From Polaromonas sp. (GTDB taxonomy: Bacteria > Pseudomonadota > Gammaproteobacteria > Burkholderiales > Burkholderiaceae_C): a stretch of DNA of 28,129 bases. Location: positions 1 through 28,129 of the forward strand of contig JBILIK010000109.1 in the NCBI GenBank assembly GCA_044350025.1, read 5' to 3'. Positions within the stretch are counted from its first letter, which is position 1; every line of letters begins with the position of its first letter. Below are positions 8,184 through 24,189 of this stretch, one piece after another. The notes beneath the pieces were generated by a model. That model worked only from the letters and a program-made list of their open reading frames with translations, searched no databases and was not told the origin of the DNA. The translations under genes were made by a program, and so were the position numbers.

Positions 8184-8239
8184 AAGTTTCAATAAAAAAA
8201 TACCATTATAAATCATAGACTTACAACATTATTTCTTTG

Positions 8240-9099: not shown

Positions 9100-9296
9100 A
9101 CTTTTCTCTTTCTAAAAGTCTTAGGCATCCGTCTTACAAAAGTTTAGATTTATGACAGTCTATCAGCCCCCATTGTCGCTGTGAATTTGCTGTAGTGCCG
9201 CTAAATCGTTGAGGCTCTGTTGCCCATCTGCTTGCTCAACATGTGTATGTCAGGGCTGTGGCCTACGCGTCGTGCAATTTTCTTACGTGCAAAAGT

Positions 9297-9548
9297 CTAA
9301 GTGGCCATCAGCGCATCTTCGATCGAACCTTGGAAACCCTCGGCGTCGCCATAGTGCACAACAAGGCGGCTACCAACGAATCGCGAGTCATTGAAATGCC
9401 ATGTGTACGTGAACTCTTCGCCTTCGTAAAATCCTTGGGCATCTTTCACAAGATGCGCACCACTTTTAACATCCATCCACTCTGTTGAAGTAAGGCTCAC
9501 AGTCTGAGTTTCGTAACCAATTTGAACACTTAAACTAATATCAGCCAC
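9297..9548 (-). CDS. Hypothetical protein (83 aa, GTG start)
   Basis: ORF with an AAGGA-like motif upstream of the GTG. Local GC (~50% by eye) is higher than its neighbours. No family recognised. Confidence 0.4.
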   Translation of the reverse strand: MADISLSVQIGYETQTVSLTSTEWMDVKSGAHLVKDAQGFYEGEEFTYTWHFNDSRFVGSRLVVHYGDAEGFQGSIEDALMAT

Positions 9549-9640
9549 AAGGAAGATCCTTCAACATTGGTTAAATTAGAAAAGGCCAGTGAAAGAATTC
9601 GCCATCGTTGAGTCAATACTTCAGAAGCATACCAAGGCTG

Positions 9641-10447
9641 TCAATAAGCACCCGTGTTCAAATCGCCTTGATAACACTCTGGGAAAAATATATTGATCAT
9701 TTTCATTGAGTCATCTTCTTCTTTTTCAGACACAATTATTTGCTCCAGCAATTCAATTATTTCTTCTTTGCTGTATTCGTCATCATCAAGTATTTCACCA
9801 TCCAAACCCTTCAACTGATAGACACCATGTTGATTGGGACCAGAATCTAAAGCATGTTCTAGTTTGTCTTGATCAGGCGTACTGTCGTAGTTGTACATGG
9901 CCAAGCCAAGTTTGTGGAGTGCATGAGCCAGATCACTTACAAAATCATATACATCGTGCTGAGTGAATCTATCCATATAGTCGATATCTTCAGCAGGGTT
10001 TGAGCCGCCAAGCAATCCAAATGCATTTACTGTTTTTCCAGTTACAGCATCGAAAGAGAAAATCCTGTTCTTTCTGCCTAGACCGAAACATAAAACTTGT
10101 TTTGTGAAGAGATTAACTATTATGAAATCTGGATTGAGATTTCCAGAGTTGAGATAACTTGCAAAAGGTTCATAAAGTTCGATTAATACATTTTTCAATT
10201 CAGGCCTGAGAACGCTAACATTAATGAAAAACAAATGGCCTACTGGTTTTTCTTCGCTATCAGGATTATTTTCATAGTGTTTCAGCAAATATTCAAAATC
10301 ATCTTGGTTGTATTCCGCATTGGGAATATCTTTGGCTCTGGGTTGACGGTCAAAAAAGGATTTTGAATACACATCAACCAAATCACCTTGTTGCTGAAGT
10401 TTCGCAAGCAAGGCAATGGCTGTTTTTGTACCACCCGTGATTTTCAT
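9641..10447 (-). CDS. Hypothetical protein (268 aa) with an acidic C-terminal region, immediately downstream of the Type ISP gene
   Basis: ATG preceded by GAAGGGA. Same strand and similar low GC as the ISP gene. No motifs recognised. Confidence 0.55.
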   Translation of the reverse strand: MKITGGTKTAIALLAKLQQQGDLVDVYSKSFFDRQPRAKDIPNAEYNQDDFEYLLKHYENNPDSEEKPVGHLFFINVSVLRPELKNVLIELYEPFASYLNSGNLNPDFIIVNLFTKQVLCFGLGRKNRIFSFDAVTGKTVNAFGLLGGSNPAEDIDYMDRFTQHDVYDFVSDLAHALHKLGLAMYNYDSTPDQDKLEHALDSGPNQHGVYQLKGLDGEILDDDEYSKEEIIELLEQIIVSEKEEDDSMKMINIFFPECYQGDLNTGAY

Positions 10448-10582
10448 AACAGTTCCCTTCTGTTCTTAAAAATTTCTTACGAATTCACAAACGATGCACT
10501 ACTGGAATCGTTCACAACATCTGCAATCGTGCCATCTTTAATCCGCTGTACTCTTTGTTCAATCATTTTTTTAGATCGGTTA

Positions 10583-13500
10583 TCACAAATCCAATTTTGG
10601 AAGCGAGTTAACGATCTTCATAGTTTCAAGTGAAACGGTAATCACACGTTGAAAGAGTTCCAGAGGATACGCTGGGTTATTCATCGTTTCAATCGCATAG
10701 TCATTTGCGTCATTGACGATGCCACTATCCTTGTCGACTTTCAAGCATTGACGTTCCATGACCCACTCAAGCGCGGGTTTACCGTTCACTACGTATTCAT
10801 AGGCTTCAAGCGGAATGTTCTTGATCGTGATGCGTTCGTTATAGATGACCGTTGTTTTATCTTCACGACCACGGGTTCCTGCAAAGCGCATTTTCTCTAC
10901 CCTATAAAGAAAGGTAGGGTCTACATTATTAAGTAAATCAGTTTGACTCTCTATGCTCAAGTTTCTATAGGGCTCCGCTCTCTCATAACCAACATGTAGG
11001 GTGCCGAGGGATTTTCCTGCATCTGCGATTTGACTGAAGATGCCAAAACCCTTAACTAAAGGTATCTTAGGCAAGCCCTTTTGCAAATTATTTTGAAACC
11101 GAGTCTTGAATTCTAAGGAGTGCAGAACACCATAAATATAATAAAAAATATCTTCTTTCTTTAGGTCGGAATTTTTATAAAAATTCCTAAACTCAGAAAG
11201 ACTCCAATCACTAATTGAGTCAAGACGTTTATATGAGGAATCATCCTTCTTCAGAGAAAAAAGATCTTCGTCCCTTTCCTCTCTCTCATAAAGAAAAAGA
11301 GGAAAAACTTGACCATTGAACTGAAGTTGCACATCTGGTAGTACATCTGCAAGAACTGCAGAAAAGTTCTTTGAACCAACTCCTGAAACCGCTATGCAGA
11401 GATTAGAAAAACCATTCTGTGGGAAGATTTTGGGTAATTGATAGACCCGATTATTGAAGTCTCGATCCGCATATGCCCAGCGCTTGGTGAAAGGTCTATA
11501 TAGGGTAAGTTGTATTGATTCAGGGCGGAAAGTGATGGTTTCACCCCTTCTAACACCCTCTCTCTGAGCAGTATCCCAACTAATAAGTTTCGGATCTGTG
11601 TTGATGAAGTTTTCGATTGCTATCGATGGCTGACGATGACTATCTTTTGAAAATCGTTCAACCTCGGTGTTATAAAAATTGATTGTCCGGCTTACATTTT
11701 TTTTAAGTTTTTCAATCGAATAGTTGTAATTCCAAGAATCTCGGTTGGTTTTAAGACCGCTTGAATAGTTATTAAAAACTACTTTGCTGCCCTTACCCTT
11801 TTTGTCGCCCAAGGTAATGAAAGAGTCAAATATTACTTCTCCTTGGTTGATCCAGTCGTTTGTGTTATCTGGCGACAGGCAAGTCCACTTTCCCTCTTTT
11901 GAGATCCCTTTAATTGATTGATAGTGCGAAATTATCTTGAGTTTCTCCTCGCGATCAAAGTAGTCACCAATATCACAGTAGAAAATCTCCCCAGACCTTG
12001 GCGAAGTACCCCGCTTCCTAACCAGAATTGTTATTGCTATCGGTGATCTGCTACCAGATCCAAAAATTTTGCCTCCCTCTCGCCGAGACAACTCTCCAGC
12101 AGTTCTCTGATTTCCGCGAAGATTGAAAACGTAAATCTTGTCAAATTCCTCGACAAGGCACTTACGCATTCCGTCGGTTGCGTTTCCGTCAATCCATCCC
12201 GCACCCGTTACAAAGCCGATTACACCTTCATCACCGATGCGATCGGATGCCATTCGAAAGGCACGGATGTAACTGTCGTAGAGGGAGTTTTTTAACGTTG
12301 CTGAACTAGATGCCGCGTAGGTGCTTTCGATACGCCGATCTAAATTTGAGTACTTCACATTTGCCGCATTGTCATTAGCACTTGTTTGTCCAGCGGAATA
12401 TGGTGGGTTGCCAATGATCACATTGATCTTACGTTTTCTCTGATTCTTTCTGCGCTGAGAGTTATCCGGCAAAAGATTCGCGATCATGTCGTGATCTTCT
12501 TCGTAAAGTTGAAAAGTGTCAGTTAGAACAATCCCGTTGAAAGGACGATATTGATGATCGTCAGTCAAGTCTTGGTAGACTGATTCAGCATTTATCGAAG
12601 CGATGTAGTAAGCGAGAAGCACTATCTCGTTCGCATGAATCTCGCTTTCGAACTTACGTTTCAGACTTTGCTTATCAATCAATCCTGATTGCAAAAGTCG
12701 TGAAATAAATGTGCCCGTGCCAGCAAAAGGATCAAGAACATGCACATTCTTCTCAGTAATTCTTGTTCCAAACTCTTCATGCAAAACGTCTTCAACTGAG
12801 TGAATGATGAAGTCCACCACTTCGACTGGCGTATAGACGATACCCAGTCGCTCAGTCATTGACTTAAATGCATAACTGAAGAATCGCTCATATAACTCTA
12901 GTATGAGCGTCTGTCGACCAGTAGAGGTTTCAATGTCTGCCGATCTGCGCTTGACAGAATCGTAGAACTTTTGAAGCGAATCACTTTCCTTCTCAAGTCG
13001 TTGCGCTGATAACGCAGTCAGAATTGACTGCATAGACTTTGAAACAGGATTTTCTTCTGTAAATTTATGATCTTTGAAGAGTGATTCAAAGACAGGTTTA
13101 GTCACCAGATGCTGTGCGAGCATCTCGACTGCTTGCTCCTCTGTGATAGAGGGATTCAAATCATCACGAATCTCTGCAACAAATTCCTCAAAAAGTTTTC
13201 GCTCTTTCGTTCCAGAGTTGAAGACTATGGCTTTGATTCGTATGATGTGAGCCTGAGCGATCTTCGCAATGTCCTTAGCCCAGTTCTCCCAGTAATCCCG
13301 AGTACCGCATCGCTCGACAATCTTTGCCTTGATTGCTTTTGATAAATCAGACAAGACGAATGCAAGTTGCTCTCCAGAGGTAGATTCTGGCTCCTCAATT
13401 GGTTCCTTTTCTCCTTTACCTTCATTCTCTAGACCCTCATCGCCACCTTCTTTGCGTTTTGGTTTTATATCATCAACTACAGCGGTAGTTGCTTCAAGTT

Positions 13501-15484
13501 CCGCTCTCGCTCCAACCCCGACAATCTCAATACGATCTGAAACGTCTTCACCTAGCCCCATTTTGTTAATGGTGCTATCGAATCGCTCATCGTGCGATCG
13601 AAGCGCATTCAAGATCTGCCATACGACACGGTACTTATCGTTGTCATTCAATGCTTTTTCGGGTGATACGCCAGGAGCGACCGTAATTGGAATAATCACA
13701 TAGCCGAGATCTTTACCCTCCGCTTTACGCATTACCCTCCCAACCGACTGCACCACGTCAATTTGACTTTTACGGGGATGCATAAAAATGACTGCATCTA
13801 ACGCTGGAACGTCAACGCCTTCAGACAAACACCTGACATTAGTAAGAACACGACATGAGTTATCTTCAATATCGTCTTTGAGCCAATTCAATCGTTCGTT
13901 TCGTAGATCAGCATCAAAACCACCATCTACATGCTTTAGATCCACGCGAAAATTATCGCTTTTTTCCTCTGCAGATTCCTTTGAAAGATATTCATCAACA
14001 ACTTGTGAAAACTCTTGCTCAAGCAACTTTGAAAGTTTTATGTTTTGACAAAACGCTAACGCCCTTCGCATGGGCTTCAAAGATGAAAAATCTAGCGCAT
14101 CTGACTCTGTAAATCCTTCTTTTTCAAGTGCTTTATAGCAACCGATAATTTTTGTTGCATCGTCAAGTTTTAGTTCAGCACCTTCCGCTAATCGATTCTG
14201 AACTTTTTCGCTAACGATACCCTCATCAACTGCCAGCACAACAACTTTGTAGTCAGTTAAAAGATTGTTTTCAACAGCCCATCCGAAACCTTTGTAGAAG
14301 AATAATGGACCATAAGTACTTTCATCGTCCATAGAGGCAAGAGTGACATTTTCGTCATCCGCCTTTGTCTTTGCCTTTTCACCATAGATTCGTGGTGTTG
14401 CCGTCATATAAAGACGCTTTACACCATTGACGTTATCGTTACTATGTATCTTGACGAAACTTGACTCATCGTCTCCAACAAGCGTTGCACCTGTCGTTCG
14501 GTGCGCTTCATCACAAACAATAAGTTCAAAGTTACCTAAGCCGTGCTTCTTTTGCGCCTCTGAAATTACATCTATTGAGTGATATGTGGAGAAAACAACT
14601 GTCATTCGATCAGAAGATGCTTTTGCAACAGCATCAGCAAGATCTTTCGCATTGGTTGTTGCTGGAAACGCAAGATCGTTAGTGCTTATGATTACTTCAT
14701 CGTCCTTCTTTCTGCTACCAACAGTAGCATCTGAGCAAGCAGAAAAAGCATTAAAGTCATGTGTCGCATCATTCTTCCACTCTCTGATCGTTTGCGACAT
14801 GAGTGACAGTGACGGAACCATATACAGAACTGTTTTTCCCGCACCTGCAATAGATTCAGAAATGATCAAACTGGTATATGTTTTACCTGTACCGCAAGCC
14901 ATGATGATCTTGCCGCGGTCATGTTCTGCGAATCCCTCTCTAGTCTTCTCTAGAGCCTCAGATTGATGAGGGCGTGGTCCATGCTTTGCTCGAAAACGGA
15001 GTTCATCTTTTTTGACAAGAGTGAGCCAGTCGATTAGACAGTTCTCTAATTCTGAAGTTTGAATTCGAAGATATTCTTTGTCGAGTTTATCAAGCACTTG
15101 TTGTGCGTTTGGAGCAATGCCTAAACTTGATGTGTCGATCAATAGCAAACGACTAAAGTCTTTGTTTGACGAAGCAGAGACAAAAGAATCAAGGTCTTGC
15201 TTTGTGATCTGATTTTCGGCGCCATAGCACTTGCATTGAATAGCGCAAAAGGTGTCTTGACCACGAATCTTGGCAACTAGATCGATTCCAATGTCTTTAC
15301 CGCTATAACCCTCATGCCCTGTTACCCAATCTGTGTAGTGCCAAACTCGCTCATATTGTTGCGTTTGAGTAGGATCGTTCTCAAGAAAGACCTTGACCAT
15401 TTTTTCAAATGCAGTTCCTAACTCAGTCGTGTTTGTTGAGCGGGTCCTTATTACTTCAAGGGCTTGTCTGAAAATAGTTGCCAT
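10583..15484 (-). CDS. Type ISP restriction-modification enzyme (single polypeptide: Mrr-like nuclease + SF2 helicase-like ATPase + gamma-class N6-adenine methyltransferase + C-terminal target-recognition region), LlaGI/LlaBIII-like
   Basis: 1633 aa. The PD-(D/E)xK-like motif is GIDLVA...AIQCKCY (about residues 66-86). The ATPase motifs are Walker A ACGTGKTYT (about 196-204), DEAH VCDEAHR (about 323-329), TATP, and motif VI QSVGRVMR. The methylase motifs are SAM motif VLDPFAGTGTF (about 916-926) and IIGNPPYSAG (about 1023-1032). A further ~600 aa C-terminal region follows. Domain order and size match the described Type ISP architecture. Confidence 0.85.
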   Translation of the reverse strand: MATIFRQALEVIRTRSTNTTELGTAFEKMVKVFLENDPTQTQQYERVWHYTDWVTGHEGYSGKDIGIDLVAKIRGQDTFCAIQCKCYGAENQITKQDLDSFVSASSNKDFSRLLLIDTSSLGIAPNAQQVLDKLDKEYLRIQTSELENCLIDWLTLVKKDELRFRAKHGPRPHQSEALEKTREGFAEHDRGKIIMACGTGKTYTSLIISESIAGAGKTVLYMVPSLSLMSQTIREWKNDATHDFNAFSACSDATVGSRKKDDEVIISTNDLAFPATTNAKDLADAVAKASSDRMTVVFSTYHSIDVISEAQKKHGLGNFELIVCDEAHRTTGATLVGDDESSFVKIHSNDNVNGVKRLYMTATPRIYGEKAKTKADDENVTLASMDDESTYGPLFFYKGFGWAVENNLLTDYKVVVLAVDEGIVSEKVQNRLAEGAELKLDDATKIIGCYKALEKEGFTESDALDFSSLKPMRRALAFCQNIKLSKLLEQEFSQVVDEYLSKESAEEKSDNFRVDLKHVDGGFDADLRNERLNWLKDDIEDNSCRVLTNVRCLSEGVDVPALDAVIFMHPRKSQIDVVQSVGRVMRKAEGKDLGYVIIPITVAPGVSPEKALNDNDKYRVVWQILNALRSHDERFDSTINKMGLGEDVSDRIEIVGVGARAELEATTAVVDDIKPKRKEGGDEGLENEGKGEKEPIEEPESTSGEQLAFVLSDLSKAIKAKIVERCGTRDYWENWAKDIAKIAQAHIIRIKAIVFNSGTKERKLFEEFVAEIRDDLNPSITEEQAVEMLAQHLVTKPVFESLFKDHKFTEENPVSKSMQSILTALSAQRLEKESDSLQKFYDSVKRRSADIETSTGRQTLILELYERFFSYAFKSMTERLGIVYTPVEVVDFIIHSVEDVLHEEFGTRITEKNVHVLDPFAGTGTFISRLLQSGLIDKQSLKRKFESEIHANEIVLLAYYIASINAESVYQDLTDDHQYRPFNGIVLTDTFQLYEEDHDMIANLLPDNSQRRKNQRKRKINVIIGNPPYSAGQTSANDNAANVKYSNLDRRIESTYAASSSATLKNSLYDSYIRAFRMASDRIGDEGVIGFVTGAGWIDGNATDGMRKCLVEEFDKIYVFNLRGNQRTAGELSRREGGKIFGSGSRSPIAITILVRKRGTSPRSGEIFYCDIGDYFDREEKLKIISHYQSIKGISKEGKWTCLSPDNTNDWINQGEVIFDSFITLGDKKGKGSKVVFNNYSSGLKTNRDSWNYNYSIEKLKKNVSRTINFYNTEVERFSKDSHRQPSIAIENFINTDPKLISWDTAQREGVRRGETITFRPESIQLTLYRPFTKRWAYADRDFNNRVYQLPKIFPQNGFSNLCIAVSGVGSKNFSAVLADVLPDVQLQFNGQVFPLFLYEREERDEDLFSLKKDDSSYKRLDSISDWSLSEFRNFYKNSDLKKEDIFYYIYGVLHSLEFKTRFQNNLQKGLPKIPLVKGFGIFSQIADAGKSLGTLHVGYERAEPYRNLSIESQTDLLNNVDPTFLYRVEKMRFAGTRGREDKTTVIYNERITIKNIPLEAYEYVVNGKPALEWVMERQCLKVDKDSGIVNDANDYAIETMNNPAYPLELFQRVITVSLETMKIVNSLPKLDL

Positions 15485-15516
15485 GATTTTTTATATTATT
15501 TTTTGATTAATTAAAA

Positions 15517-16140
15517 TTACTGCTGCTCATCTTCAAGACGAAGGCGTCGGGCAGCGAGAGTCTCGTCCTCATACTGCCAGTAGTCGTTACCACTGACGGA
15601 AGTCCACTGGTATCCCATTTTCCGAAGAGCAATCAGTGCTGCCCCACTTGGCGAAAGAGATTGCCCTTCATGTTGCACTCTGCCATCTGCTACCACGGTG
15701 CAGGTCACGTTGGAGTCTTTTGTAAAGATCAACATGGCACCCACAGGAATGCCCAACTCTGAAAACCTCAGACGAGTCCTACGCTCTTCTGTGGCCACGG
15801 CTCTTTGCAAGGCCTGCACATCTGAGGCATCCACGACCACGTCAACCTTGGGCGTGACCTCTTTAAGTTCCGCAAGTTGGATGGCTTCTTTGACTTGATT
15901 GGCATCAGCACGAAAAAACTCGCGGTTTGATCTAATGCGCTTGTCGGAAAAGATGCGGTGAAGTTTGCCCTCAACCAAAGCGGAATTGCCAACCTCAGCC
16001 GCATAAAAGCACTGGAATGGCAATGGCATGCTGGTGTTGTCCAACTCTCTGATCCGCTGCTCTACGCTAGTGGTTGTACGTCCGATCTTGACCATGCCTT
16101 CCATGGCTTCATTGGTCAGAACGTAGACAATTTCAGGCAT
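15517..16140 (-). CDS. T5orf172/MUG113 (GIY-YIG superfamily) domain protein with a DUF4357-like C-terminal domain
   Basis: The N-terminus MPEIVYVLTNEAMEGMVKIGRTT...RIRELDN...EFF is typical of T5orf172. The C-terminal part (GQSLSPSGAA...GNDYWQYEDETL) resembles the small domain often fused to these proteins near R-M loci. The ATG at 16140 overlaps the upstream stop (TGATG). Confidence 0.65.
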   Translation of the reverse strand: MPEIVYVLTNEAMEGMVKIGRTTTSVEQRIRELDNTSMPLPFQCFYAAEVGNSALVEGKLHRIFSDKRIRSNREFFRADANQVKEAIQLAELKEVTPKVDVVVDASDVQALQRAVATEERRTRLRFSELGIPVGAMLIFTKDSNVTCTVVADGRVQHEGQSLSPSGAALIALRKMGYQWTSVSGNDYWQYEDETLAARRLRLEDEQQ

Positions 16141-16907
16141 CAATTTTCTTTCTTGGTTGGAGTACTCACAGGGAAAACACCATTCTCTACGTTTTTGATT
16201 ATTTGTTGGGCTTGGGAAACGTATCTTTTCACGTGTGCACCCAACATGTTTCGTCCAAGCAACCGTTCTGCGCTGGTCTTGGACAAGGCCTGTCTACTGG
16301 CATCTCGGTTAAAGCGCATGTCAACGCCAATTTCCCACAAGGTCTTGCGCTCTGGCTTGGGCAAGGCTTGGTTGGCTAGCCAGAGGTCATAGGCCTCCAG
16401 TGTGCGTTCAAGGTTCTGTATGGTGTAGTTGCGTGCCAAGGGGTACCGAGCAGTCTGCGTGACCTCGGCCAGTGCTGGCCGCCCTCTTGACCTCTGCAAC
16501 CTACTGTCAAGCAACTTGGCGAACTCGCCTTTAAGACGACGATTGCTGACACGCAATGGCACAGCCACGATCATCACGTCCTCTACGTTCCAAGAGGCAT
16601 CCCATTGATCTCGCGATGTCAACTCACCGAACTTGGCTTCCAACCGCTGCTCAGCAAACAGCCTAGGTCCACGCTGCTCATGGGTCCACCACTTGTGGAA
16701 ATCAGCAGCACGTACGTCACCAAAGTCGGCGTATAGCCCAGCCAAGCGGCCCTCACCACCAGCCTCGCAGCACTCAAGGTAGGCCGCACTCCTCATCAGA
16801 TACGCCCACCACCAGTAATAGGGGCTGCGCTTCTGGTAGGTGTCAGCAAGTCGGTTGTTGACCCGTCCAAACAGTGGGTGTGGAGCGAGGAAGTGCGTCT
16901 TAGCCAT
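16140..16907 (-). CDS. Hypothetical Trp-rich protein (~255 aa), unknown function
   Basis: The ORF opens at a TTG (16958), but the first ATG is at 16907 (MAKTHFL...). It contains SPYYWWWAYLMRSAAYLECCEAGG. GC is ~50% by eye. No family recognised. Confidence 0.55.
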   Translation of the reverse strand: MAKTHFLAPHPLFGRVNNRLADTYQKRSPYYWWWAYLMRSAAYLECCEAGGEGRLAGLYADFGDVRAADFHKWWTHEQRGPRLFAEQRLEAKFGELTSRDQWDASWNVEDVMIVAVPLRVSNRRLKGEFAKLLDSRLQRSRGRPALAEVTQTARYPLARNYTIQNLERTLEAYDLWLANQALPKPERKTLWEIGVDMRFNRDASRQALSKTSAERLLGRNMLGAHVKRYVSQAQQIIKNVENGVFPVSTPTKKEN

Positions 16908-16998
16908 TCTTACCAAGTAATTGATGTGAATGCTCGGATGGTACACGAAAACAGCCAAAAACTTGATACTTCATCTACTGCAAATTCGCAGTATTTTT

Positions 16999-17421
16999 AT
17001 GGAGATGAATATGAACCACGTTAAGCAAGCACTATCAATTAACAAAGAAAAAAAGGCACATGCACTGCGACTTTATAAACAGGCCGTTAGTGAAGTTGTG
17101 CGCAAAGATTACAAACCAATGGACGATGATGCGCATGTTGATCTAAGTGCTGTATTTGGAATGAAATATGTTGAAGAACTTTTACAAAATGGAAAATCTT
17201 TTATCAATGCAAGCGTTTATGCCGCTTCGAATGTGGAATTTAATTATGCCAATTGCTTGTATTCACAAAAAGAAAAGTTTATCCAACTAGCGAAGGAACT
17301 TGTTTCCAAAAATGAAAGAGTTGACGATCAAAAACTCGAAAACATCGCAAGTCAAATGAATTTTATTTTGACATTTACTACAGCGAAACCTGCCGAAAGG
17401 CCATTTGTGCTGTTCAAATAA
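16999..17421 (+). CDS. Hypothetical protein (~137-140 aa)
   Basis: In-frame ATGs occur at 16999, 17005 and 17011. GGAG at 17001-17004 favours 17011 (MNHVKQ...). No family recognised. Confidence 0.5.
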   Translation: MEMNMNHVKQALSINKEKKAHALRLYKQAVSEVVRKDYKPMDDDAHVDLSAVFGMKYVEELLQNGKSFINASVYAASNVEFNYANCLYSQKEKFIQLAKELVSKNERVDDQKLENIASQMNFILTFTTAKPAERPFVLFK

Positions 17422-17438
17422 TATTTAGAAATAATCAA

Positions 17439-17492
17439 TTCCACGGCCTGAAAGTATTGCTCTTTACAAATACTTAATTAATGGCCGTGGAA
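17439..17492 (+). other. Nested intergenic stem-loop
   Basis: The outer 10 bp perfect inverted repeat is TTCCACGGCC / GGCCGTGGAA (17439-17448 / 17483-17492). It encloses an inner AAGTATT / AATACTT pair. No U-tract follows. Confidence 0.4.
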
Positions 17493-17511
17493 CATCATAC
17501 AAGGAAAAATC

Positions 17512-17886
17512 ATGGAAATTATTACCACACCCGTCAAAGTCAAGACTGGAAAAGGCAGATCTAGGAAATATCAATTTCTAGATGCTGAGAAAATGAACAA
17601 TCAATACCCATCAACGTTTATGCTTCATTCACTTCAGATTAGATCTAATATACCCAACCGAATGTGGGTCAAATGTGGGGTTCAATGGAGTGGAGGCATT
17701 AATGAAAATGCATGGTTTGAGGTAATTGAAGTACAAAAAGATGATCTCGGAAAAATCACATATACAGCCGAGTTAGACAAATACAACTTGAGTGGGCTCG
17801 GCGAAGGTGTTGTTGCTTGTGGGATTGAACCGCGACATATATTAGATTTGGATTTCGAAAAATTCAAAAAGATGTTTGCACCTTAA
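17512..17886 (+). CDS. Hypothetical protein (124 aa)
   Basis: ATG preceded by AAGGAAAAA. Faint resemblance to DUF2314-like proteins (MWVKC...AWFEVIEV) that I cannot verify. Confidence 0.5.
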   Translation: MEIITTPVKVKTGKGRSRKYQFLDAEKMNNQYPSTFMLHSLQIRSNIPNRMWVKCGVQWSGGINENAWFEVIEVQKDDLGKITYTAELDKYNLSGLGEGVVACGIEPRHILDLDFEKFKKMFAP

Positions 17887-18455
17887 ACCAGTTCCACAGC
17901 CTTGCGCAACATGTTGTCATTGGCATCGATGTAAACGGCTGTGGTGCTGACATTCCTATGTCCCATCAATCGCATCAACACACGCAGACCCACGCCTTGC
18001 GATGCAATTGATGTGGCATAGGTTCTACGGCCACTGTGGCTGCTGGCACCTTCAATGCCCGCTGCGCGGTACAGGCTCAAAAAGTGTTGTGTGAGTGTGT
18101 TGGCTGTGAAACCTTTGCGTGGATTTTTCTGAGTGGGAAACAAGGCGCGATCCTTGTCGTCTGTGCGAATCAGCGTGACGTACTGGGTCAGTTCTTCCTT
18201 GAGTCTAGTGCTGACAAACACGGTGCGTGGATGCTTGCCCTTGGTCTGTTCAGCAGTCAAACGGATTTCATTTTTGATGTTGCCAGTGGCATCCACAACA
18301 TGACCAACAGTGAGTGAGGCAATCTCCCCTACCCGCATGCCGCTCAAATGACTTGTGAGAATCAACGCCCTATCGCGTGCTGCGTATTTTTTAGCACTGA
18401 CATGCTCAAGTACCCGTTTAATTTCTTGTTCGTTTAGTGTTTTGGCTTGTGACAT
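17883..18455 (-). CDS. Small tyrosine recombinase consisting of the catalytic domain only (190 aa)
   Basis: Candidate catalytic residues appear in order: R (ARDRALIL), HSGRRTYAT (H-x-x-R), GHRNVSTT (H/W) and AVYID (Tyr). There is no N-terminal core-binding or arm-binding domain. It overlaps the 3' end of the convergent gene by 4 bp. Confidence 0.7.
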   Translation of the reverse strand: MSQAKTLNEQEIKRVLEHVSAKKYAARDRALILTSHLSGMRVGEIASLTVGHVVDATGNIKNEIRLTAEQTKGKHPRTVFVSTRLKEELTQYVTLIRTDDKDRALFPTQKNPRKGFTANTLTQHFLSLYRAAGIEGASSHSGRRTYATSIASQGVGLRVLMRLMGHRNVSTTAVYIDANDNMLRKAVELV

Positions 18456-18759
18456 TTGTTGCTCCTTGGCGTAATCAAATAATTAACTTGAAATAAGCAT
18501 AATTTCTGAGATTAGGTCTGAGCAACCTCTATGTAAACGACCCGCCAAGGTGACGGGTTTCTATGTTGTTTTGTTCAAAATCAAGGGGTTAGCGCAGCAA
18601 CTACATATTTCAGTAATTTTCTTTGGTTTCGTATTTATGAGTTTTCTGTGGCTTATAGAACACGAATTGACGGACAAGCCCTGCAAGCGTTTTTAAGCGT
18701 AGGCCGCTACCCAAGTACCCATTTGTATTTTTTGATTTGCTGTAGGGCTTTTAAGTGCG

Positions 18760-19230
18760 TTAATTTTTAATGACTGTGTGATACAGCGTTTCTAAGTCAA
18801 GTTTGTAGGTCAGGTCACTCACATTGAGAATTTCAACAGATCCTCTAATAAACCACTCAACGACACCTTCTTCACTTCTGATTGAAATCTGACCTTCATC
18901 ATCATCAACAACAACTTCTTCCTCACCATAGTCGTGTTGAGGTAATTTGAAGATCCATATGAGTTGTTGTAATTCATACTCCATAACTAAATCTATGTTT
19001 GTTGCAAGATAGTCTGGTGAAAGAGCAAACTTGATCTCTTTTTCACTGTCACGGATGTTCTTTATGTCAAGTACCTGTACTGGTGTCAATATTGGACGTG
19101 TGTACGATTTATGTTCTATAGATTCTTGTACAGCGACTGGATCTTCACTTCCATTGCTCATTTGATAAACAGCAAGAACACTTATTTTTACGAGTAGATT
19201 TTTTAACTGCTCTTCATCCATTAAGTTCAC
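18760..19230 (-). CDS. Hypothetical acidic protein (156 aa, GTG start)
   Basis: GAGGAAG lies 6 nt upstream of the GTG at 19230. It has many D/E residues (YGEEEVVVDDDEGQ). No family recognised. Confidence 0.5.
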   Translation of the reverse strand: MNLMDEEQLKNLLVKISVLAVYQMSNGSEDPVAVQESIEHKSYTRPILTPVQVLDIKNIRDSEKEIKFALSPDYLATNIDLVMEYELQQLIWIFKLPQHDYGEEEVVVDDDEGQISIRSEEGVVEWFIRGSVEILNVSDLTYKLDLETLYHTVIKN

Positions 19231-19340
19231 TTGTCTTCCTCTTTAGCAATATTTTCAAAATCTTCTATTAAAGCATTCACATGTTTGGCTCTAAACCAAG
19301 TTCACTGCACTCCAATTCTTTTATTTCACATGTCCGACTT

Positions 19341-19841
19341 TCACTTGTGCTCTAACAACGTCTCAATGATGTCCCATCTATTTTTGTATTCATCAATTCG
19401 CCAACCTGAGTAAGAAGCAGATGGAGGGATATTGATGGTTCTGACTGTGCCATCTTGCCTGACGCTTCCATCTTTACTCAATTCACTAAGCCACATCTTA
19501 TGCGCCTTTGAAACATTCGTTGAGACTTCTAAAGAAGGAATAACGTAGTACTCAAAATCTGCTGTTGAGTTTGCTGACGGAATACCAGCAAGAACCCAAA
19601 TGAAGTTCTCACCAAAATTCTTTTCAGCCTTTACACCAACCGTAACTGTTTTATTGCCAGGCACATATGTCTTGACTTGTATGTGAACGAACTTTGTTCC
19701 CTCTGCGTTGCTACAAAGAATGTCCGTATTAGGCGTATTGCCCATAGTGACTACAGCAACCAAATCACGTCTACAAAGTTCACCAGCCACAAAAAACTGT
19801 GCTGAACTTCCTCTTGCGTTCTTATTTGTGGTTGCCATCAT
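19341..19841 (-). CDS. PD-(D/E)xK nuclease-like protein (166 aa)
   Basis: The pattern GSSAQFFVAGELCRRDLVAV...TDIL...VHIQVKT resembles the restriction-endonuclease-like fold (D...(E/Q)xK) of small stand-alone nuclease-like proteins. Confidence 0.45.
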   Translation of the reverse strand: MMATTNKNARGSSAQFFVAGELCRRDLVAVVTMGNTPNTDILCSNAEGTKFVHIQVKTYVPGNKTVTVGVKAEKNFGENFIWVLAGIPSANSTADFEYYVIPSLEVSTNVSKAHKMWLSELSKDGSVRQDGTVRTINIPPSASYSGWRIDEYKNRWDIIETLLEHK

Positions 19842-19992
19842 TGACTCAATTTTTGTTTAGTTGACTCATCTTACTTGTCAGTCTTGTTTTATTCAATGTT
19901 TGAGTTTTTATCTATGTATGAATCGTTCAAGCATGACAAAGAACTACGAACCCTTGTGCGATTCGCAGTGTTGTAAGAACCTTAAAGTGACT

Positions 19993-20583
19993 TCAGTCTG
20001 CTTTAAGGGCGGCGTGAGGAATCCAGCAGTTGCTTACATCCCAAATGCTGTTTGTGTCCCACGCCTTACGTGTGTTTTGTTGTGCCTCTTTTAATGAGTA
20101 GCCTGCCCAATGTGAGGCCTCGCCTACTTTGTAGTAGTCGTAGGCTTTCACATCCGTTGATTGATGTGCCATATCGTGCCAAGCGTGCCTAAATAATGTT
20201 TCTATGTCATCCGTACTGAGAACGGAGGGCAAGTTGCCTAATGAGATGTTTACGTGAATTGTTTGTGATCTGTCAGTGGTCTCTTTTGCCCCTTCGATCG
20301 TTACGAAGGTAAGTGGCTTAAAGAGATACGGGTTCTGGGCGGGCCTATTTGATCGTGCTGGATAAAGGGATCTGAAGAAGCAGTTCAATGCGTGCCTTGT
20401 GTCCTTGCTTGTTTGCTCCATCTTTGATTTGATGTACTGATCTGCCCTCACGTGCTTAAAGCGCCCTACATCTGTACTCGCTACATATGGGCGATGCAAG
20501 GTGTGGGCAACGACTACGTGGCTTACGTGTTGCTCGTGCTGATTAAACATAGATTCAATGTCTTTGGCGTTGTACTGTCTCAT
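19993..20583 (-). CDS. Hypothetical protein (~196 aa; 203 aa if the TTG at 20604 is used)
   Basis: Long ORF with no recognised family and no obvious Shine-Dalgarno for either start. Confidence 0.45.
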   Translation of the reverse strand: MRQYNAKDIESMFNQHEQHVSHVVVAHTLHRPYVASTDVGRFKHVRADQYIKSKMEQTSKDTRHALNCFFRSLYPARSNRPAQNPYLFKPLTFVTIEGAKETTDRSQTIHVNISLGNLPSVLSTDDIETLFRHAWHDMAHQSTDVKAYDYYKVGEASHWAGYSLKEAQQNTRKAWDTNSIWDVSNCWIPHAALKAD

Positions 20584-20654
20584 GAATTTATTTAGTAAAA
20601 CCAAAGAAAAGGAGACAGAAATATTGAGGTTGCTCTTCTTGCAGATCAGAAATT

Positions 20655-20677
20655 AAAGTTAAGTTCTCTTTAACTTT
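20655..20677. promoter_or_regulatory. Inverted repeat AAAGTTAA-N7-TTAACTTT in a divergent intergenic region (candidate operator)
   Basis: Perfect 8 bp arms at 20655-20662 and 20670-20677, 14 nt upstream of the ATG at 20692. Confidence 0.3.
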
Positions 20678-20691
20678 TTAGGACGATCGCG

Positions 20692-21135
20692 ATGAGCATT
20701 CTTTCAACTCTCAAATTTGTAGCAAGCAAGAAAAAGCAGGGAATTGCACCCTTAATTCAACGCAGAAACAAGTTGAGCAACAAGATCTTTGAACAAATTC
20801 AACTGGCCCAAGCACAAAAAGATGGACGCACGTACGCACCCACACGCTTGAAGACTTACGTCAACAAGCAAACGGGCGAACGCAAGACCATTGAATCAGT
20901 CAAAAAAGTGCGTGAGTGGTGGCACATCAATGACAGCGGAAAAATCAACTTGATTTGCAAGTACGGCAGCAAGCAGATCCAATTTGACGCAAAAGGCAAG
21001 AATGCTATTGAAGTGTCAAATGGCGATGAATTGCTGACTGCACTTGAGTCGCTGAAGTTGGCTGTTGAGCAAGGTGAACTTGATCAGCAGATTGAAGCAA
21101 CCAGCAGCGCCTTGCGAGCAGGATTTTCTAAGTAA
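20692..21135 (+). CDS. Island-associated hypothetical protein (147 aa; resembles a conserved family seen next to integrases, possibly DUF6641-like)
   Basis: The layout is MSILSTLKF...RRNKL...EQIQLA...WW...G.I.L..KYG.K...F...GKNAIEV...L...L..AVEQGELD. The family name is recalled from memory and unverified. Confidence 0.5.
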   Translation: MSILSTLKFVASKKKQGIAPLIQRRNKLSNKIFEQIQLAQAQKDGRTYAPTRLKTYVNKQTGERKTIESVKKVREWWHINDSGKINLICKYGSKQIQFDAKGKNAIEVSNGDELLTALESLKLAVEQGELDQQIEATSSALRAGFSK

Positions 21136-21143
21136 GGGCACAA

Positions 21144-21173
21144 GTTGTTCATATAAATAAATGTATGAACAAC
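21144..21173 (+). promoter_or_regulatory. 10 bp perfect hairpin GTTGTTCATA-N10-TATGAACAAC sequestering the start codon of the next ORF
   Basis: The arms are at 21144-21153 and 21164-21173. The right arm contains the ATG at 21165. It lies 8 nt after the preceding stop. Confidence 0.35.
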
Positions 21174-21509
21174 TATTTGGCCACAGTGCGTGCCATGGGA
21201 CGAGTGTTGCAGACAGCAGTCTTTGCACAAAGCCCATTACATGCACGGTATATTTTAGAATTTCAATTTGGGATCGGCAATGTACACATCAATCCCAAAC
21301 CCGTGTCGCTTTTATTAGCAGATGCTGTAGTTGGTGAAGGAGCAGCGACACAAGCGAATTTAAACCCGCATCAACAACGCATCAAAACACTGCAAAGACA
21401 AAAAGACTTGATCTCAAAAAGCATTGAGTCTGAGCGAGCCAAAGACAAGTTGTCAAAGGCCCAGCAGCAGATGCGAATGGCAACTCAAATCAAAACTGGT
21501 TTTTCTTGA
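21165..21509 (+). CDS. Hypothetical protein (114 aa)
   Basis: ORF with a basic, coiled-coil-like C-terminus (QRQKDLISKSIESERAKDKLSKAQQQMR). No family recognised. Confidence 0.4.
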   Translation: MNNYLATVRAMGRVLQTAVFAQSPLHARYILEFQFGIGNVHINPKPVSLLLADAVVGEGAATQANLNPHQQRIKTLQRQKDLISKSIESERAKDKLSKAQQQMRMATQIKTGFS

Positions 21510-21741
21510 GATTTCATGAAATCGGATTGGGTAGATTTTTATAAGTTGCGCACACAATTTTTTGTCTTAACTACTTTTCTATCACCCCACCATTTTTTTG
21601 ACCATACCCCTTTTCAATTCAAAATGCTCAAACCGGTCGATAGGTAGTTGCTGACTGGTTTAAGCGCTGGTATAGGTGTTGATTGCTAGGAACTGGCCTA
21701 ATGAATGACAGGTGTAGTTGAAATGTTTTTCAGCCAACTGC

Positions 21742-22107
21742 CTAGTATTCGCTTGGCAACATGACCACCCAAAACTCACCCGTCCAACAACCGTAAAGTG
21801 TGATGGCAGATAGTGGGAAGTCTGTGTACTCGATTTTCTGCTTTGCCAAGACCCTGCCGTTTCCATCCTCAATTGAAACAGATGCTGATCGATTTGTGCT
21901 TGTGAGTTTCAGACAAGTGAACCAATCTTTGTTGCCATCAACGCCACTTAAGTGTGATGCGTACACATCAAACAACCAAAAGCACTCTGCGTTTTCAGCA
22001 AGGTAGCGTGAGCCCTCTGTGAGCAATACAGTCCGTGTCAATTTCGCTAACTGATCACAACCAGTGAACTGTTTGAGCGTTGCGAGTAATTCATTTTCTT
22101 CAACCAT
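21742..22107 (-). CDS. DUF6876-like protein (121 aa), a family common on plasmids and integrative elements
   Basis: The layout is QFTGCDQL...LTEGSRYLAENAECFWLFDV...IEDGNG...IEYTDFPL...LPSEY. An AAGGA motif lies upstream of the ATG. The family name is from memory. Confidence 0.55.
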   Translation of the reverse strand: MVEENELLATLKQFTGCDQLAKLTRTVLLTEGSRYLAENAECFWLFDVYASHLSGVDGNKDWFTCLKLTSTNRSASVSIEDGNGRVLAKQKIEYTDFPLSAITLYGCWTGEFWVVMLPSEY

Positions 22108-22201
22108 TTCTGTGTTCCTTTAAGTGTGAACACAGTATTAGTTCTTCGCATCAAATGGACAACCTGTGTCCTGCCAGATTGGCGGTGTATCAATAGCCTA
22201 C

Positions 22202-23614
22202 TCACTTTGCCTTGACAGAAACCTTGGCATTTGTTTTCTTAGGGGCTATTTTTCTTGCCAGCAATTCTGCTTTTTTCTTTGCTTGTGCTGAGTGATAGAT
22301 TTCTTCAACAGTTGAAGTTGAGGCAATTCTTCGTCGTGTTTCTTGTCCACGCAATTGCTCAGTTGCTTCAATTACTTTGAGATGACTATAGTGACGCTCA
22401 ATCATCAGCACACTTGTACCCATCTGTTTAGCAAGCGTGTGAATTGGCACTTTATCGTGCGTCAGTGCCAGCGTTGCGTATGTGTGACGAAAACTGTAGA
22501 ACACACGGTTCTGCTCCGTTTTTGGATCGTACAGCAAGTTGTGCTCATCCAAGTACCTCTCAAACATGTGTTGAAACGCTGCACTGACGTCTTGCTTCTT
22601 TTCTTTTGTACGCAACACAAAGTCATCATTGTTTGGAGTCACAACATTTTTGAACGGATCAATGATGTTATTTCTAACGCCATAAACACGACGAGCAATA
22701 CGCTCAAGCACTTTCACCGTTGGCTGTCTTCCAACAATTTCACGTGTGCCCGTCTTACCCGTAACAATTAACTCAACACCTCTGTTTAAATCAGTCAGAA
22801 CAATTTCTTCTTCTGTGCCATCGTCTGAAACAGCCTTTTGCCCAGTGTAAATTTCTCTAGGATTCATCGTGAACTTGATCTGTTTCCATTTCAAGTTCAT
22901 CAACTCTTTGCCAGGTCGTGCTCCTGTATCAATGAGCATCTCAGAATAGTCACGCATTATCTGGCGCATCTCTTTGCTGTGTGCGTTACGTGCCCGTTCA
23001 ATCCATGCTTCGAAGTTGTTGATCACAGCCTGTATTTCCTTCAGCGTAAAGGCTGGATGGCGTGTGCTCTTCTTACCTTTCGCTTCAAGTTTTGGACGAT
23101 TGAGATCAGTTAAAAAATTACGCAGCACAGCCTCGTCAAACACCAGATTCAGTGCTGCGTTGTGGCTAAGCATGGTGCTGTTGCTTGGCGTTCTTTCCAT
23201 CATCTGTATGCGTTCAGCATCCAAGTGATCCAGTGCTGTGCTGTCAATGTTGGTGATGAGCCTGTTGCCCAAAATTGGGATCAAGTACTCATTGATGATG
23301 CGCATGTAGTCTTTGTAGGAGACTTTGCCATCGCCGTTGGCAATCTTCTGTTCCATACGCTGTACGGCAAGTTTGGCAACGTCTCTGAACTTGCGTGTGA
23401 TGACTGGCAGGTTGTCGTGCTTGCGAATTTCCGCACGTATCTTTATCGCCTTCGCTACTTCTTTGGCATCTTTCAACTTGCGTTCTTTAGTTGAGGCACG
23501 TTGCCAAACACCATCAACTTTGTAGCGGCATTGCCAAATTGAACTTCGCTCTCGTCTGTAAACGACAAGTTCGTTTTCTGTGACTATGTGAGTCGTTTCA
23601 AGTTTGGCTGACAT
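22202..23614 (-). CDS. int: Tyrosine-type site-specific integrase of the island (470 aa)
   Basis: The C-terminal catalytic region reads TGARPGKELMNLKW...FYSFRHTYATLAL...TLAKQMGTSVLMIERHYSHL (R, H-x-x-R, H, Y). It lies at the island end next to the tRNA/att region. Confidence 0.85.
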   Translation of the reverse strand: MSAKLETTHIVTENELVVYRRERSSIWQCRYKVDGVWQRASTKERKLKDAKEVAKAIKIRAEIRKHDNLPVITRKFRDVAKLAVQRMEQKIANGDGKVSYKDYMRIINEYLIPILGNRLITNIDSTALDHLDAERIQMMERTPSNSTMLSHNAALNLVFDEAVLRNFLTDLNRPKLEAKGKKSTRHPAFTLKEIQAVINNFEAWIERARNAHSKEMRQIMRDYSEMLIDTGARPGKELMNLKWKQIKFTMNPREIYTGQKAVSDDGTEEEIVLTDLNRGVELIVTGKTGTREIVGRQPTVKVLERIARRVYGVRNNIIDPFKNVVTPNNDDFVLRTKEKKQDVSAAFQHMFERYLDEHNLLYDPKTEQNRVFYSFRHTYATLALTHDKVPIHTLAKQMGTSVLMIERHYSHLKVIEATEQLRGQETRRRIASTSTVEEIYHSAQAKKKAELLARKIAPKKTNAKVSVKAK

Positions 23615-23657
23615 AAACGCACTTTAATTTCAAAACGACAAAAGATCAACCAAGTAA

Positions 23658-23665
23658 GTGTGTAG
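23658..23665 (+). repeat. GTGTGTAG motif between the integrase start and the island tRNA (candidate arm-type site)
   Basis: Same 8-mer and orientation as at 8240, 8252 and 24064. Confidence 0.4.
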
Positions 23666-23674
23666 TGTGCAGAC

Positions 23675-23706
23675 AAAAAAAGAGAACTGCTTTTACACAG
23701 TTCTCT
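23675..23706 (-). terminator. Rho-independent terminator after the island tRNA
   Basis: The minus strand reads AGAGAACTG-tgtaaaag-CAGTTCTCT followed by TTTTTTT, starting 9 nt after the tRNA CCA end. Confidence 0.6.
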
Positions 23707-23714
23707 TTTAGATT

Positions 23715-24003
23715 TGGTGGGACCAGCGAGACTCGAACTCGCAACCAAAGGATTCCGCTTTGTGTGACTTTCGCCACTCGCTGGACTTTGCCTTCACCAT
23801 ATTGATTGCTCAACTTAGGCGGGTGCCGTCAAGTCTCTACACGTTCCAAAGTGCTTTCGCACCAAGGCTTCGCTCGGCATTGCCGTATGTGTTTCCACAC
23901 TTAGGTTTCACCGAATTTGACACCATCCCTTACACAGTTTCCACGTGTAAGGCACATTTGAGAAATATGAGTCCTCTGCGCTAACCAATTGCGCCATAGT
24001 CCC
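23715..24003 (-). tRNA. Island-borne tRNA(CAU), most like tRNA-Ile2 (lysidine type; Met not excluded), interrupted by a group I intron after the anticodon
   Basis: The 5' exon is GGGACTATGGCGCAATTGGTTAGCGCAGAGGACTCAT (24003 to 23967). The 3' exon is AATCCTTTGGTTGCGAGTTCGAGTCTCGCTGGTCCCACCA (23754 to 23715). Joined, they fold as a canonical cloverleaf with anticodon loop CTCATAA. Confidence 0.85.
23755..23966 (-). ncRNA. Group I intron, subgroup IC3, Azoarcus pre-tRNA-Ile type (212 nt, no ORF)
   Basis: The minus strand is near-colinear with the Azoarcus ribozyme as I remember it. The matching segments are AUGUGCCUUACACGUGGAAACUGUGUAAGGGAUGGUGUCAAAUUCGGUGAAACCUAAGUGUGGAAACACAUACGGCAAUGCCGAGCG, then GUGUAGAGACUUGACGGCACCCGCCUAAG, then GGCGAAAGUC, ending in GCGG. 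P1 forms as CAU|AU with AUGUG, with a U.G wobble at the 5' splice site. The terminal G precedes AAUCC. Confidence 0.85.
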
Positions 24004-24012
24004 TTAATACTG

Positions 24013-24018
24013 ATTGTA
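24013..24018 (-). promoter_or_regulatory. Candidate -10 box TACAAT for the island tRNA
   Basis: The minus strand reads TACAAT-cagtattaa-GGGAC. The host tRNA has the same hexamer and spacing at 24199-24204. No convincing -35 box. Confidence 0.35.
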
Positions 24019-24052
24019 CGTGGTCGTTTTACTATAAAAACAGTCCTCAAAA

Positions 24053-24071
24053 GTGTGTAAGCGGTGTGTAG
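24053..24071 (+). repeat. Pair of GTGTGTA(A/G) motifs (candidate integrase arm-type sites, attR side)
   Basis: GTGTGTAA is at 24053-24060 and GTGTGTAG at 24064-24071. The paired spacing resembles the attL pair. Confidence 0.45.
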
Positions 24072-24126
24072 TGTTTAACGCACCCTCTTAAACTACGTAA
24101 CATGTTGATTTATATAGATAATTTAC

Positions 24127-24135
24127 GATTATGAG
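24127..24135. repeat. Extra inner copy of the att core GATTATGAG, 13 bp inside the right junction
   Basis: CGATTATGAGAACTTTT here compares with GGATTATGAGAAGTTT at attL. Confidence 0.5.
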
Positions 24136-24148
24136 AACTTTTTTAATA

Positions 24149-24189
24149 GATTATGAGTCCTCTGCTCTAACCAACTGAGCTATAGGCCC
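24149..24189 (-). pseudogene. 5' half (G1 to C40) of the host tRNA(CAU) gene; attR junction
   Basis: The minus strand reads GGGCCTATAGCTCAGTTGGTTAGAGCAGAGGACTCATAATC, then diverges into AT-rich island DNA with no T arm or acceptor strand. Confidence 0.85.

Follow-up and report, generated by a model that had tools for sequence, protein, structure and literature searches.

Group I introns and altered anticodon stems in the replacement tRNA-Ile(CAU) genes of betaproteobacterial defence islands: a possible means of hiding the integration target

In the stretch of DNA analysed here (the window: 28,129 nucleotides (nt), positions 1 to 28,129 of contig JBILIK010000109.1 in assembly GCA_044350025.1, Polaromonas sp.), an integrated island has split the host gene encoding a tRNA-Ile with the anticodon CAU, and the island carries a tRNA(CAU) gene of its own (the cargo tRNA) whose anticodon loop, the same loop in which the host gene was split, is interrupted by a group I intron. 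Why should the spare copy of a tRNA gene be interrupted at this very place? An initial annotation of the window proposed that the intron splits the 9-base pair (bp) core at which the island recombines and thereby shields the cargo tRNA from the island's own integrase. In a comparison of about 130 related loci, all islands with an intron in the cargo tRNA were found to have a host-like anticodon stem and all islands without an intron a divergent one, wherever host and cargo genes were both visible. We lean towards the interpretation that the cargo tRNA must not recreate the whole bacterial attachment site (attB), consisting of the anticodon loop with the stem arms on both sides, and that this may be avoided either by the intron or by a change in the stem.

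When joined, the two halves of the host gene (Table 1) form a canonical 77-nt tRNA(CAU) in ARAGORN, and the best E. coli matches of this reconstructed tRNA (84.4% over 77 nt) are annotated as tRNA-Ile; to judge by these matches, the gene body is that of a tRNA-Ile, not a tRNA-Met, with a CAU anticodon, i.e., of the lysidine-dependent tRNA-Ile2 type, in which C34 would be converted to lysidine by TilS and the tRNA charged with isoleucine. Both copies of the 9-bp core CTCATAATC, which had been described as duplicated at the island ends, were found at the break points of the two halves. The window contains three copies of this sequence, compared to 0.16 expected, and three copies were reached in 0 of 100 shuffles. 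Exactly between the two outer copies the G+C content (GC) is approximately 0.42, as opposed to 0.55-0.62 in the flanks. Because of the outer CTCATAATC repeats, the drop in GC and the split tRNA, the region between these copies is an inserted island, with the host tRNA split in the anticodon loop and not rebuilt. The block of identity between target and island is 9 bp long; at the left junction (attL) the sequence after the core reads TATTAAAAAAG, and at the right junction (attR) the core is preceded by GAAACTT. As the attachment site of the island (attP) has just CTCATAATC in common with the target, integration destroys the host gene. By the classical criterion of tRNA-restoring integration, the junction sequences show that the island does not regenerate the split gene, and no intact tRNA was found at either island junction by ARAGORN in default or intron mode.

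The cargo tRNA, which starts 146 bp inside the attL end, was detected by ARAGORN in intron mode only, with 0 tRNAs found in the window by the default run. Spliced, it is identical to the reconstructed host tRNA over the 24 nt GCAGAGGACTCATAATCCTTTGGT, which confirms the identity of the anticodon arms reported initially; the acceptor, D and T arms differ, and within the 5' half the differences from the host are found at the acceptor and D arms. The core in the cargo copy is split exactly as had been described (CTCAT, 212 nt, AATC), and the contiguous 24-mer GCAGAGGACTCATAATCCTTTGGT is not present in the window even with 3 mismatches allowed, so that the island indeed lacks a contiguous attB-like site. 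The assignment of the intron-containing tRNA to the island also stands, as the gene is located inside the direct repeats, in low-GC DNA and between putative arm-type integrase sites. An origin as ancestral chromosomal DNA was rejected for the window on the grounds of the repeats and the low GC; native intron-bearing versions of this tRNA gene do occur in other genomes. In relatives, GTACAAT is found at the same position as the -10-like element of the window, and a comparable hairpin with a T-run follows the cargo tRNA. Split genes of this kind are missed by default tRNA finders and at the Rfam gathering threshold, and in genomes with such islands, automated annotation is therefore expected to list tRNA-Ile(CAU) as absent or fragmentary.

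The intron belongs to the Azoarcus-type family of tRNA introns, which has been known since 1992, and its core sequence is one that we take to be near-identical to the Azoarcus ribozyme; the Azoarcus core sequence itself was matched by no paper in a full-text search. It contains no open reading frame and matches the full length (1-253) of the Rfam model Intron_gpI (RF00028) with 45.7 bits (E = 3e-10); because this score lies under the gathering score of 50, a scan of the window at the gathering threshold reported 0 families. In an alignment of 55 distinct homologous introns, RNAalifold predicted 59 pairs, 28 of which showed compensatory changes, and the anticodon-stem pair that spans the intron covaries, with A-U in 31 sequences and C-G in 24. 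This covariation is consistent with a functional ribozyme. The guide sequence TGTGC (columns T23-C27), near the 5' end of the intron and part of TGTGCC in the window, and the intron-terminal G (G224) are invariant, and the 5' exon ends in CAU. The guide sequence of the Azoarcus intron is described as pairing with the triplet CAU (PMC2241849), and the guide GUG of the window intron pairs with the anticodon CAU. In the Azoarcus pre-tRNA-Ile, exons of 39 and 40 nt enclose a 205-nt intron that lies within the anticodon loop (PMC13168695), and the "type B" genes among the relatives have exactly this layout. The window intron thus resembles the Azoarcus intron in its location in the anticodon loop of a tRNA-Ile, in the pairing of its guide with CAU and in its size (about 205 nt in Azoarcus), but it is 212 nt long, is inserted in another tRNA-Ile body with a 37-nt 5' exon, and is found on a mobile island. 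It is the ribozyme that determines the insertion after CAU, a position found throughout this intron family and not peculiar to the island in the window; since 13 native genes (see below) and Azoarcus share this position, the idea that it was tailored to the att core was rejected. In one relative, Polynucleobacter sp. MWH-Spelu-300-X4 (CP061294; L136:224-553), the intron is 253 nt long with an insertion of approximately 45 nt in a peripheral helix.

The related loci (numbered with the prefix L) were obtained from integrase look-ups and from intron-based and integrase-based scans. The intron-based genome scan yielded 39 loci, nearly all from Betaproteobacteria, in three contexts: islands with a broken host half, native genes and one tandem case (L040). 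The integrase-based metagenome scan, which represents the unbiased direction, contributed the best 80 of 492 confirmed hits, with 58-96% identity to the window integrase. Islands in which a host half is located 150-220 bp upstream of the intron-containing tRNA comprise several junction families. The order of host half, approximately 150-220 bp with a tandem pair of arm sites, cargo tRNA and integrase was found in 34 loci with an intron and in 15 without. A check attached to the initial proposal was whether related integrases are always accompanied by an intron-containing tRNA(CAU). The two were found together at dozens of loci, but not always, as at least 15 islands have intron-less cargo.

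One integrase family is associated with three layouts, i.e., classical islands, islands with intron-less cargo and islands with intron-bearing cargo, and these layouts are interleaved on the integrase tree. In the classical layout (L115, L124-L128), an intact tRNA directly follows the host genes and all arm sites are located downstream of it, followed by the integrase. In L129, where both ends of a classical island are visible, the T arm of the rebuilt gene comes from the island and the displaced host 3' half begins exactly at the first nucleotide of the loop; therefore, the classical integrases, too, appear to cross over at the anticodon loop. By sequence, the complete 3' half of the tRNA is contained in the attP of the classical islands. 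A class of tRNA integration sites with the crossover in the anticodon loop and stem arms flanking the loop was reportedly described by Williams in 2002.

Host half and cargo tRNA were both visible in 49 islands, 34 of them with intron-bearing and 15 with intron-less cargo. The stem next to the loop was host-like (GGA..TCC) in 34 intron-bearing cargo genes and divergent in 0, and it was divergent in 15 intron-less cargo genes and host-like in 0 (Fisher's exact test on the raw, related loci, 6e-13). GGA stands next to the loop in 49/49 host halves as well as in all intron-bearing cargoes. By comparison, the stems of the 15 intron-less cargo genes read GTCGA/TCGAT or GGCGA/TCGCT, with a base pair changed within 3 bp of the loop. 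This association recurs within lineages. L095 and L111 are approximately 91% identical through the integrase gene; the cargo of L111 is intron-less with a GTCGA stem, and that of L095 has a host-like stem together with a group I intron of another type, which separates U33 from C34. Similarly, L010 (with intron) and L069 (without) have the common junction CTCATAATC|TATTAACTCA. A second integrase family, with 36% identity to that of the window, includes L130, which carries the second intron type (Intron_gpI, 32.5 bits, E = 1e-6), as well as L004, L132-134 and L136 (Polynucleobacter), which have cargo with an Azoarcus-type intron; the cargo stems are host-like in all of these, L130 included. The second intron is approximately 245-250 nt long (L095:146-469 and L130:1950-2275), and the gene that contains it is miscalled tRNA-Leu(taa) by ARAGORN.

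These data refute the narrow form of the initial proposal, according to which the 9-bp core itself has to be split. Contiguous CTCATAATC is present in intron-less cargo genes, including those of L069, L072-75, L079-81 and L123, and the contiguous 9-bp core was thus rejected as the feature to be avoided. With at least 15 such intron-less cargoes, islands can be stable without a split in the 9-bp core. Intron-less island copies, which had been named as an observation that would speak against the proposal, are common, and one of them occupies the same host attB: L123 has the host locus and the host tRNA of the window, occupied by a different, 6.3-kilobase (kb) island with both ends visible, and its cargo is intron-less, with a divergent stem and a contiguous CTCATAATC. 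What the comparative pattern does favour is protection of the cargo tRNA at the level of the whole attB.

The mechanism that we propose begins with recombination by the integrase in the tRNA-Ile(CAU) gene, at the 7-nt anticodon loop, for which the anticodon stem arms around the loop would be needed as core binding sites of the integrase. The complete cargo tRNA-Ile(CAU) would compensate for the destroyed host gene, its intron splicing itself out to give a mature tRNA with an anticodon arm equal to that of the host. A contiguous host-like stem-loop located approximately 150 bp from the attP core would act as an attB in cis, and recombination with it would delete an interval of approximately 190 bp, ruin attP and disrupt the cargo tRNA. 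This liability would be removed by an intron in the loop or by changed stem pairs next to it: with attB stem, loop and stem never contiguous in the DNA of the element, the attP core could not recombine with the cargo gene. Intron-bearing cargo, and intron-less cargo with a stem unlike that of the host near the loop, would then be two interchangeable solutions. The intron itself would be a pre-existing tRNA-Ile intron, native in many Betaproteobacteria, that was co-opted rather than invented. Whether the ribozyme has in fact been co-opted as camouflage of the cargo at the DNA level, with at least two introns and in at least two integrase families, and with the corollary that native intron alleles would be resistant and may have exchanged introns with the islands, is a matter on which our judgement is evenly divided.

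Several points weigh against this interpretation. Some of the loci were retrieved with the intron as the query, which makes this portion of the sample biased. The 34:15 split is not phylogenetically independent, with 30 distinct combinations of cargo and junction; the intron-less cargo has perhaps about three origins and the intron-bearing cargo two intron types, and the number of independent cargo origins is probably only a handful. The host-like stems of the intron-bearing cargo may reflect descent from natively intron-bearing betaproteobacterial tRNA-Ile genes, and the divergent stems a foreign origin of the intron-less cargo. In addition, L071 has an intron-less tRNA beside the integrase with the stem GAGAA/TTCTT, one base pair off the host stem, a difference that may be too small to block the integrase; the host half is not visible at this locus.

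Such an effect of ancestry is the essence of the rival explanation that survives best, even though we consider it unlikely, namely that the intron is a neutral hitchhiker. The replacement tRNA would have been captured from a betaproteobacterium that natively carries the intron, which costs nothing because it splices itself, and the overlap with the att core would be coincidental because group I tRNA introns and this class of integrases both act on the anticodon loop. Capture of this kind would fit the existence of 13 native tRNA-Ile(CAU) genes that carry this intron at an identical position, with no broken half and no integrase, of which 10 are located downstream of rpoD (L005, L006, L011, L022, L023, L028, L035, L037, L041, L042) and 3 downstream of hrcA (L020, L030, L031). 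It would also fit the identity of the cargo exons of L010 with the native gene L020, the 39+205+40 layout shared by the Azoarcus pre-tRNA-Ile and the type B genes, and the stability of intron-less cargo with contiguous CTCATAATC. A hitchhiking intron does not, however, account for the perfect partition between intron and stem, which holds in interleaved clades of the integrase tree and in both integrase families, nor for the second group I intron, which is unrelated, sits elsewhere in the loop and is likewise accompanied by host-like stems. Moreover, the genes that are hit by the islands are all intron-less and host-like, and a gene of this type was never seen as cargo; as these adjacent target genes represent the nearest possible source of capture, their absence argues against a pure effect of ancestry. 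Taken as sequence comparisons, the interleaved tree, the swaps within lineages, the second intron and the second integrase family argue in the same direction.

The native genes occupy exactly the two chromosomal sites that are used by the islands, and this coincidence fits another explanation, which we nevertheless judge improbable, in which the island is the vehicle of the intron: homologous recombination of the cargo exons with the broken host halves would move the intron into the native gene and remove the island, and the allele formed in this way, having no attB, would be immune to these islands, to the benefit of the intron or the host. Two further findings point this way. In several loci (e.g., L001, L003, L007, L018, L034, L132), the 5' exon of the cargo does not differ from the 5' half of the local host gene, which suggests an exchange, be it by gene conversion of cargo exons and host halves or by re-capture on several occasions, and no host half is derived from an intron-bearing gene. 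Against this, the data do not fix the direction of transfer, a recombination intermediate was not seen, the native loci lack island remnants such as arm sites, and the altered stems of the intron-less cargo are left unexplained. A vehicle role of the island is compatible with the data and does not exclude the protection of the cargo from the integrase. If the latter holds, hosts with the native intron allele should be refractory to the islands, since these alleles have no contiguous attB. Finally, a role at the RNA level that leaves recombination unaffected, such as a tRNA supply coupled to splicing or a precursor shielded from anticodon nucleases, is very improbable, since the link between intron and host-like stem would not follow from such a role and the mature tRNA has the same anticodon arm as the host's, with nothing specific in its favour other than defence payloads that make a conflict over tRNA conceivable.

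The closest conceptual analogue to the proposed protection of the cargo tRNA is the immunity that accompanies homing of group I introns, in which the intron splits the site of the homing endonuclease, making the allele immune, and splicing restores the function of the RNA (reviewed in PMC3984707). In both cases an intron splits the DNA recognition site of a protein; in homing this protein is encoded by the intron and acts on its own homing site, whereas here it would be the integrase of an unrelated mobile element.

The manner of integration itself has a precedent in actinobacteriophages, for which tRNA-dependent lysogeny by disrupt-and-replace integration has been described (Guerrero-Bustamante & Hatfull 2024, mBio; PMC10865867). 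As set out there, these phages have a tyrosine integrase, arm-type sites and a core of approximately 10 bp, and they require a phage tRNA of the same isotype for lysogeny, while sibling phages with a 43-bp core rebuild the tRNA (PMC10865867). The island shares with them the tyrosine integrase with arm sites, the attB overlapping a tRNA gene, the short core and the failure to rebuild the tRNA, and both systems have rebuilding siblings (Boilgate versus Fionnbharth among the phages, L124-L129 versus the island in the window). The phages target tRNA-Lys or tRNA-Leu and have an intron-less tRNA elsewhere in the genome, whereas the island targets tRNA-Ile(CAU) in Betaproteobacteria and carries its tRNA, with a group I intron, inside attP. 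Neither tRNA introns nor the reason why an element's own tRNA escapes targeting is discussed in the available portion of that paper. Unlike a temperate phage, the island carries a restriction/defence payload and no recognised phage structural genes. Classical islands restore the gene with the 3' part of the tRNA contained in attP (PMC4383910). Compared with these classical tRNA islands (Islander), the island in the window likewise has a tyrosine integrase, a tRNA target and a displaced tRNA fragment at the island end, but it does not restore the gene; in the classical island L129, the identity starts at the first nucleotide of the loop.

Disrupt-and-replace integration, the intron family and the intron position were thus already known, and what is new is the pattern of introns and stems across approximately 130 loci. 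To our knowledge, group I introns of bacterial tRNAs, including the Azoarcus model ribozyme, are regarded as neutral or selfish, with no known benefit. In the islands studied here, the Azoarcus-type intron recurs within the attachment module that mobile defence islands carry, and its presence tracks whether the spare tRNA would otherwise resemble the island's own target. If true, this would be the first selectable function for bacterial tRNA group I introns and, if the relation is causal, it would connect RNA catalysis to DNA site-specific recombination, would widen the range of disrupt-and-replace integration beyond actinobacteriophages, to islands of Betaproteobacteria that live in freshwater and soil, and would offer a simple rule for the design of integrative vectors in cases where the vector has to bring along a copy of its target. 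No link of the Azoarcus-type intron to integrases, att sites or islands was found in the literature searched, and neither islands nor integrases come up in a review on group I introns of bacteria from 2014.

Table 1. Positions of the tRNA genes, attachment-site elements and island genes in the window
Feature	Position	Strand	Remarks
Host tRNA-Ile(CAU) 5' half, attL side	24189..24149	-	ends with core CTCATAATC at 24157..24149
Island-internal CTCATAATC	24127..24135	-	13 bp from attL core
Putative arm-type pair CTACACAC, TTACACAC	24053..24071	-	~80-90 bp from attL core, upstream of cargo tRNA
TACAAT, -10-like element (inferred promoter)	24013..24018	-	9 nt upstream of cargo tRNA start
Cargo tRNA(CAU) gene	24003..23715	-	ARAGORN intron mode, i(38,212)
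Cargo 5' exon, 37 nt	24003..23967	-	
Azoarcus-type group I intron, 212 nt	23966..23755	-	between anticodon nt 36 and nt 37
Cargo 3' exon, 40 nt	23754..23715	-	CCA included
Terminator of cargo tRNA, hairpin + T-run	23675..23706	-	from sequence
Third putative arm-type site	23658..23665	-	between cargo terminator and integrase start
Tyrosine integrase, 470 amino acids	22202..23614	-	Pfam PF00589; starts 101 bp downstream of cargo tRNA
DUF6876 protein	21742-22107		Pfam; island backbone
DUF6641 protein	20692-21135		Pfam; island backbone
Second small tyrosine recombinase, 190 amino acids	17883..18455	-	Pfam
T5orf172 protein	15517-16143		Pfam; adjoins Type ISP gene
Type ISP restriction-modification enzyme, 1633 amino acids	10583..15484	-	Pfam; payload
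Putative arm-type pair, P arm	8240..8259	-	65-85 bp from attR core
Host tRNA-Ile(CAU) 3' half, attR side	8183..8139	-	core CTCATAATC 8183..8175 first, CCA last
Integrated island, ~15.97 kb	8184..24148	.	from GC profile and direct repeats

In the window there are 5 copies of the octamer [CT]TACACAC, compared to a shuffle mean of 1.6, with all copies on the minus strand and at the island ends (8259 and 8247 near attR, 24071 and 24060 near attL, and 23665). We infer from this distribution that these octamers are arm-type sites bound by the integrase. Other island families have a tandem pair of their own at the same place (CTTCTACGG, TTAGGCTACA, TCTGGTCCA, CTTCCACA). With the third arm-type site located beyond the cargo terminator, the cargo tRNA would lie inside the P' arm of attP. 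A third exact copy of CTCATAATC, absent from the initial annotation, is located within the island, and the predicted attP reads AACTT-CTCATAATC-TATTAAAAAAGTT-CTCATAATC-GTAAA. In relatives the second CTCATAATC is degenerate (CTCGTATTC, CTAACAATC, CTTATATTC) and the frame TTCT-N5-TCGTAAA is kept; this internal copy could represent a second core-type site or an accessory binding site.

Two islands, L034 and L040, are present in one genome, that of Limnohabitans parvus II-B4 (contig NZ_NESN01000001.1). At the start of L040, an attP-like junction, AAACTT-CTCATAATC-TATTTAAAA, is found between the two islands. This junction of island end, CTCATAATC and island start indicates that the tandem arose by insertion into a hybrid att site and that the cargo tRNA was not the target. 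The further suggestion that the intron prevents tandem insertion of sibling elements is contradicted by this pair. In L008 and L025 (Pseudoduganella), a host 3' half in inverted orientation is found approximately 290 bp from the intron-containing tRNA, an arrangement that would place the cargo near the other island end in opposite orientation; the 8-kb chunk showed no integrase. At 8 integrase loci (L046, L054, L062, L085, L088, L091, L094, L097), no tRNA was found in the available upstream sequence, probably as a result of genes inserted between tRNA and integrase or of contigs that are too short.

The host genes flanking the island are hrcA, the NAD kinase gene nadK and recN on one side and a gene for a ChrR-type cupin on the other; L001 and L003 (Limnohabitans) have the same layout beside hrcA as the window. 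The integrase has 2017 homologues at E <= 1e-10, with the best from Limnohabitans. The backbone genes, encoding the 190-amino-acid recombinase, DUF6876 and DUF6641, are also present in L001, L003, L123, L124, L126, L129 and L132, and they are found in the second integrase family, too; a role of these genes in the control of excision is possible. No phage structural or lysis genes were recognised with Pfam among the island open reading frames scanned. Judging from gene content, the island is a member of a large betaproteobacterial family of small integrative defence islands, whose payloads elsewhere include an SNF2 helicase with a methylase (L001), MmeI-like proteins (L003, L014), ThsB-TIR, Mrr and a type I restriction system (L130), and an ATPase with AAA_15/SMC_N domains (L136).

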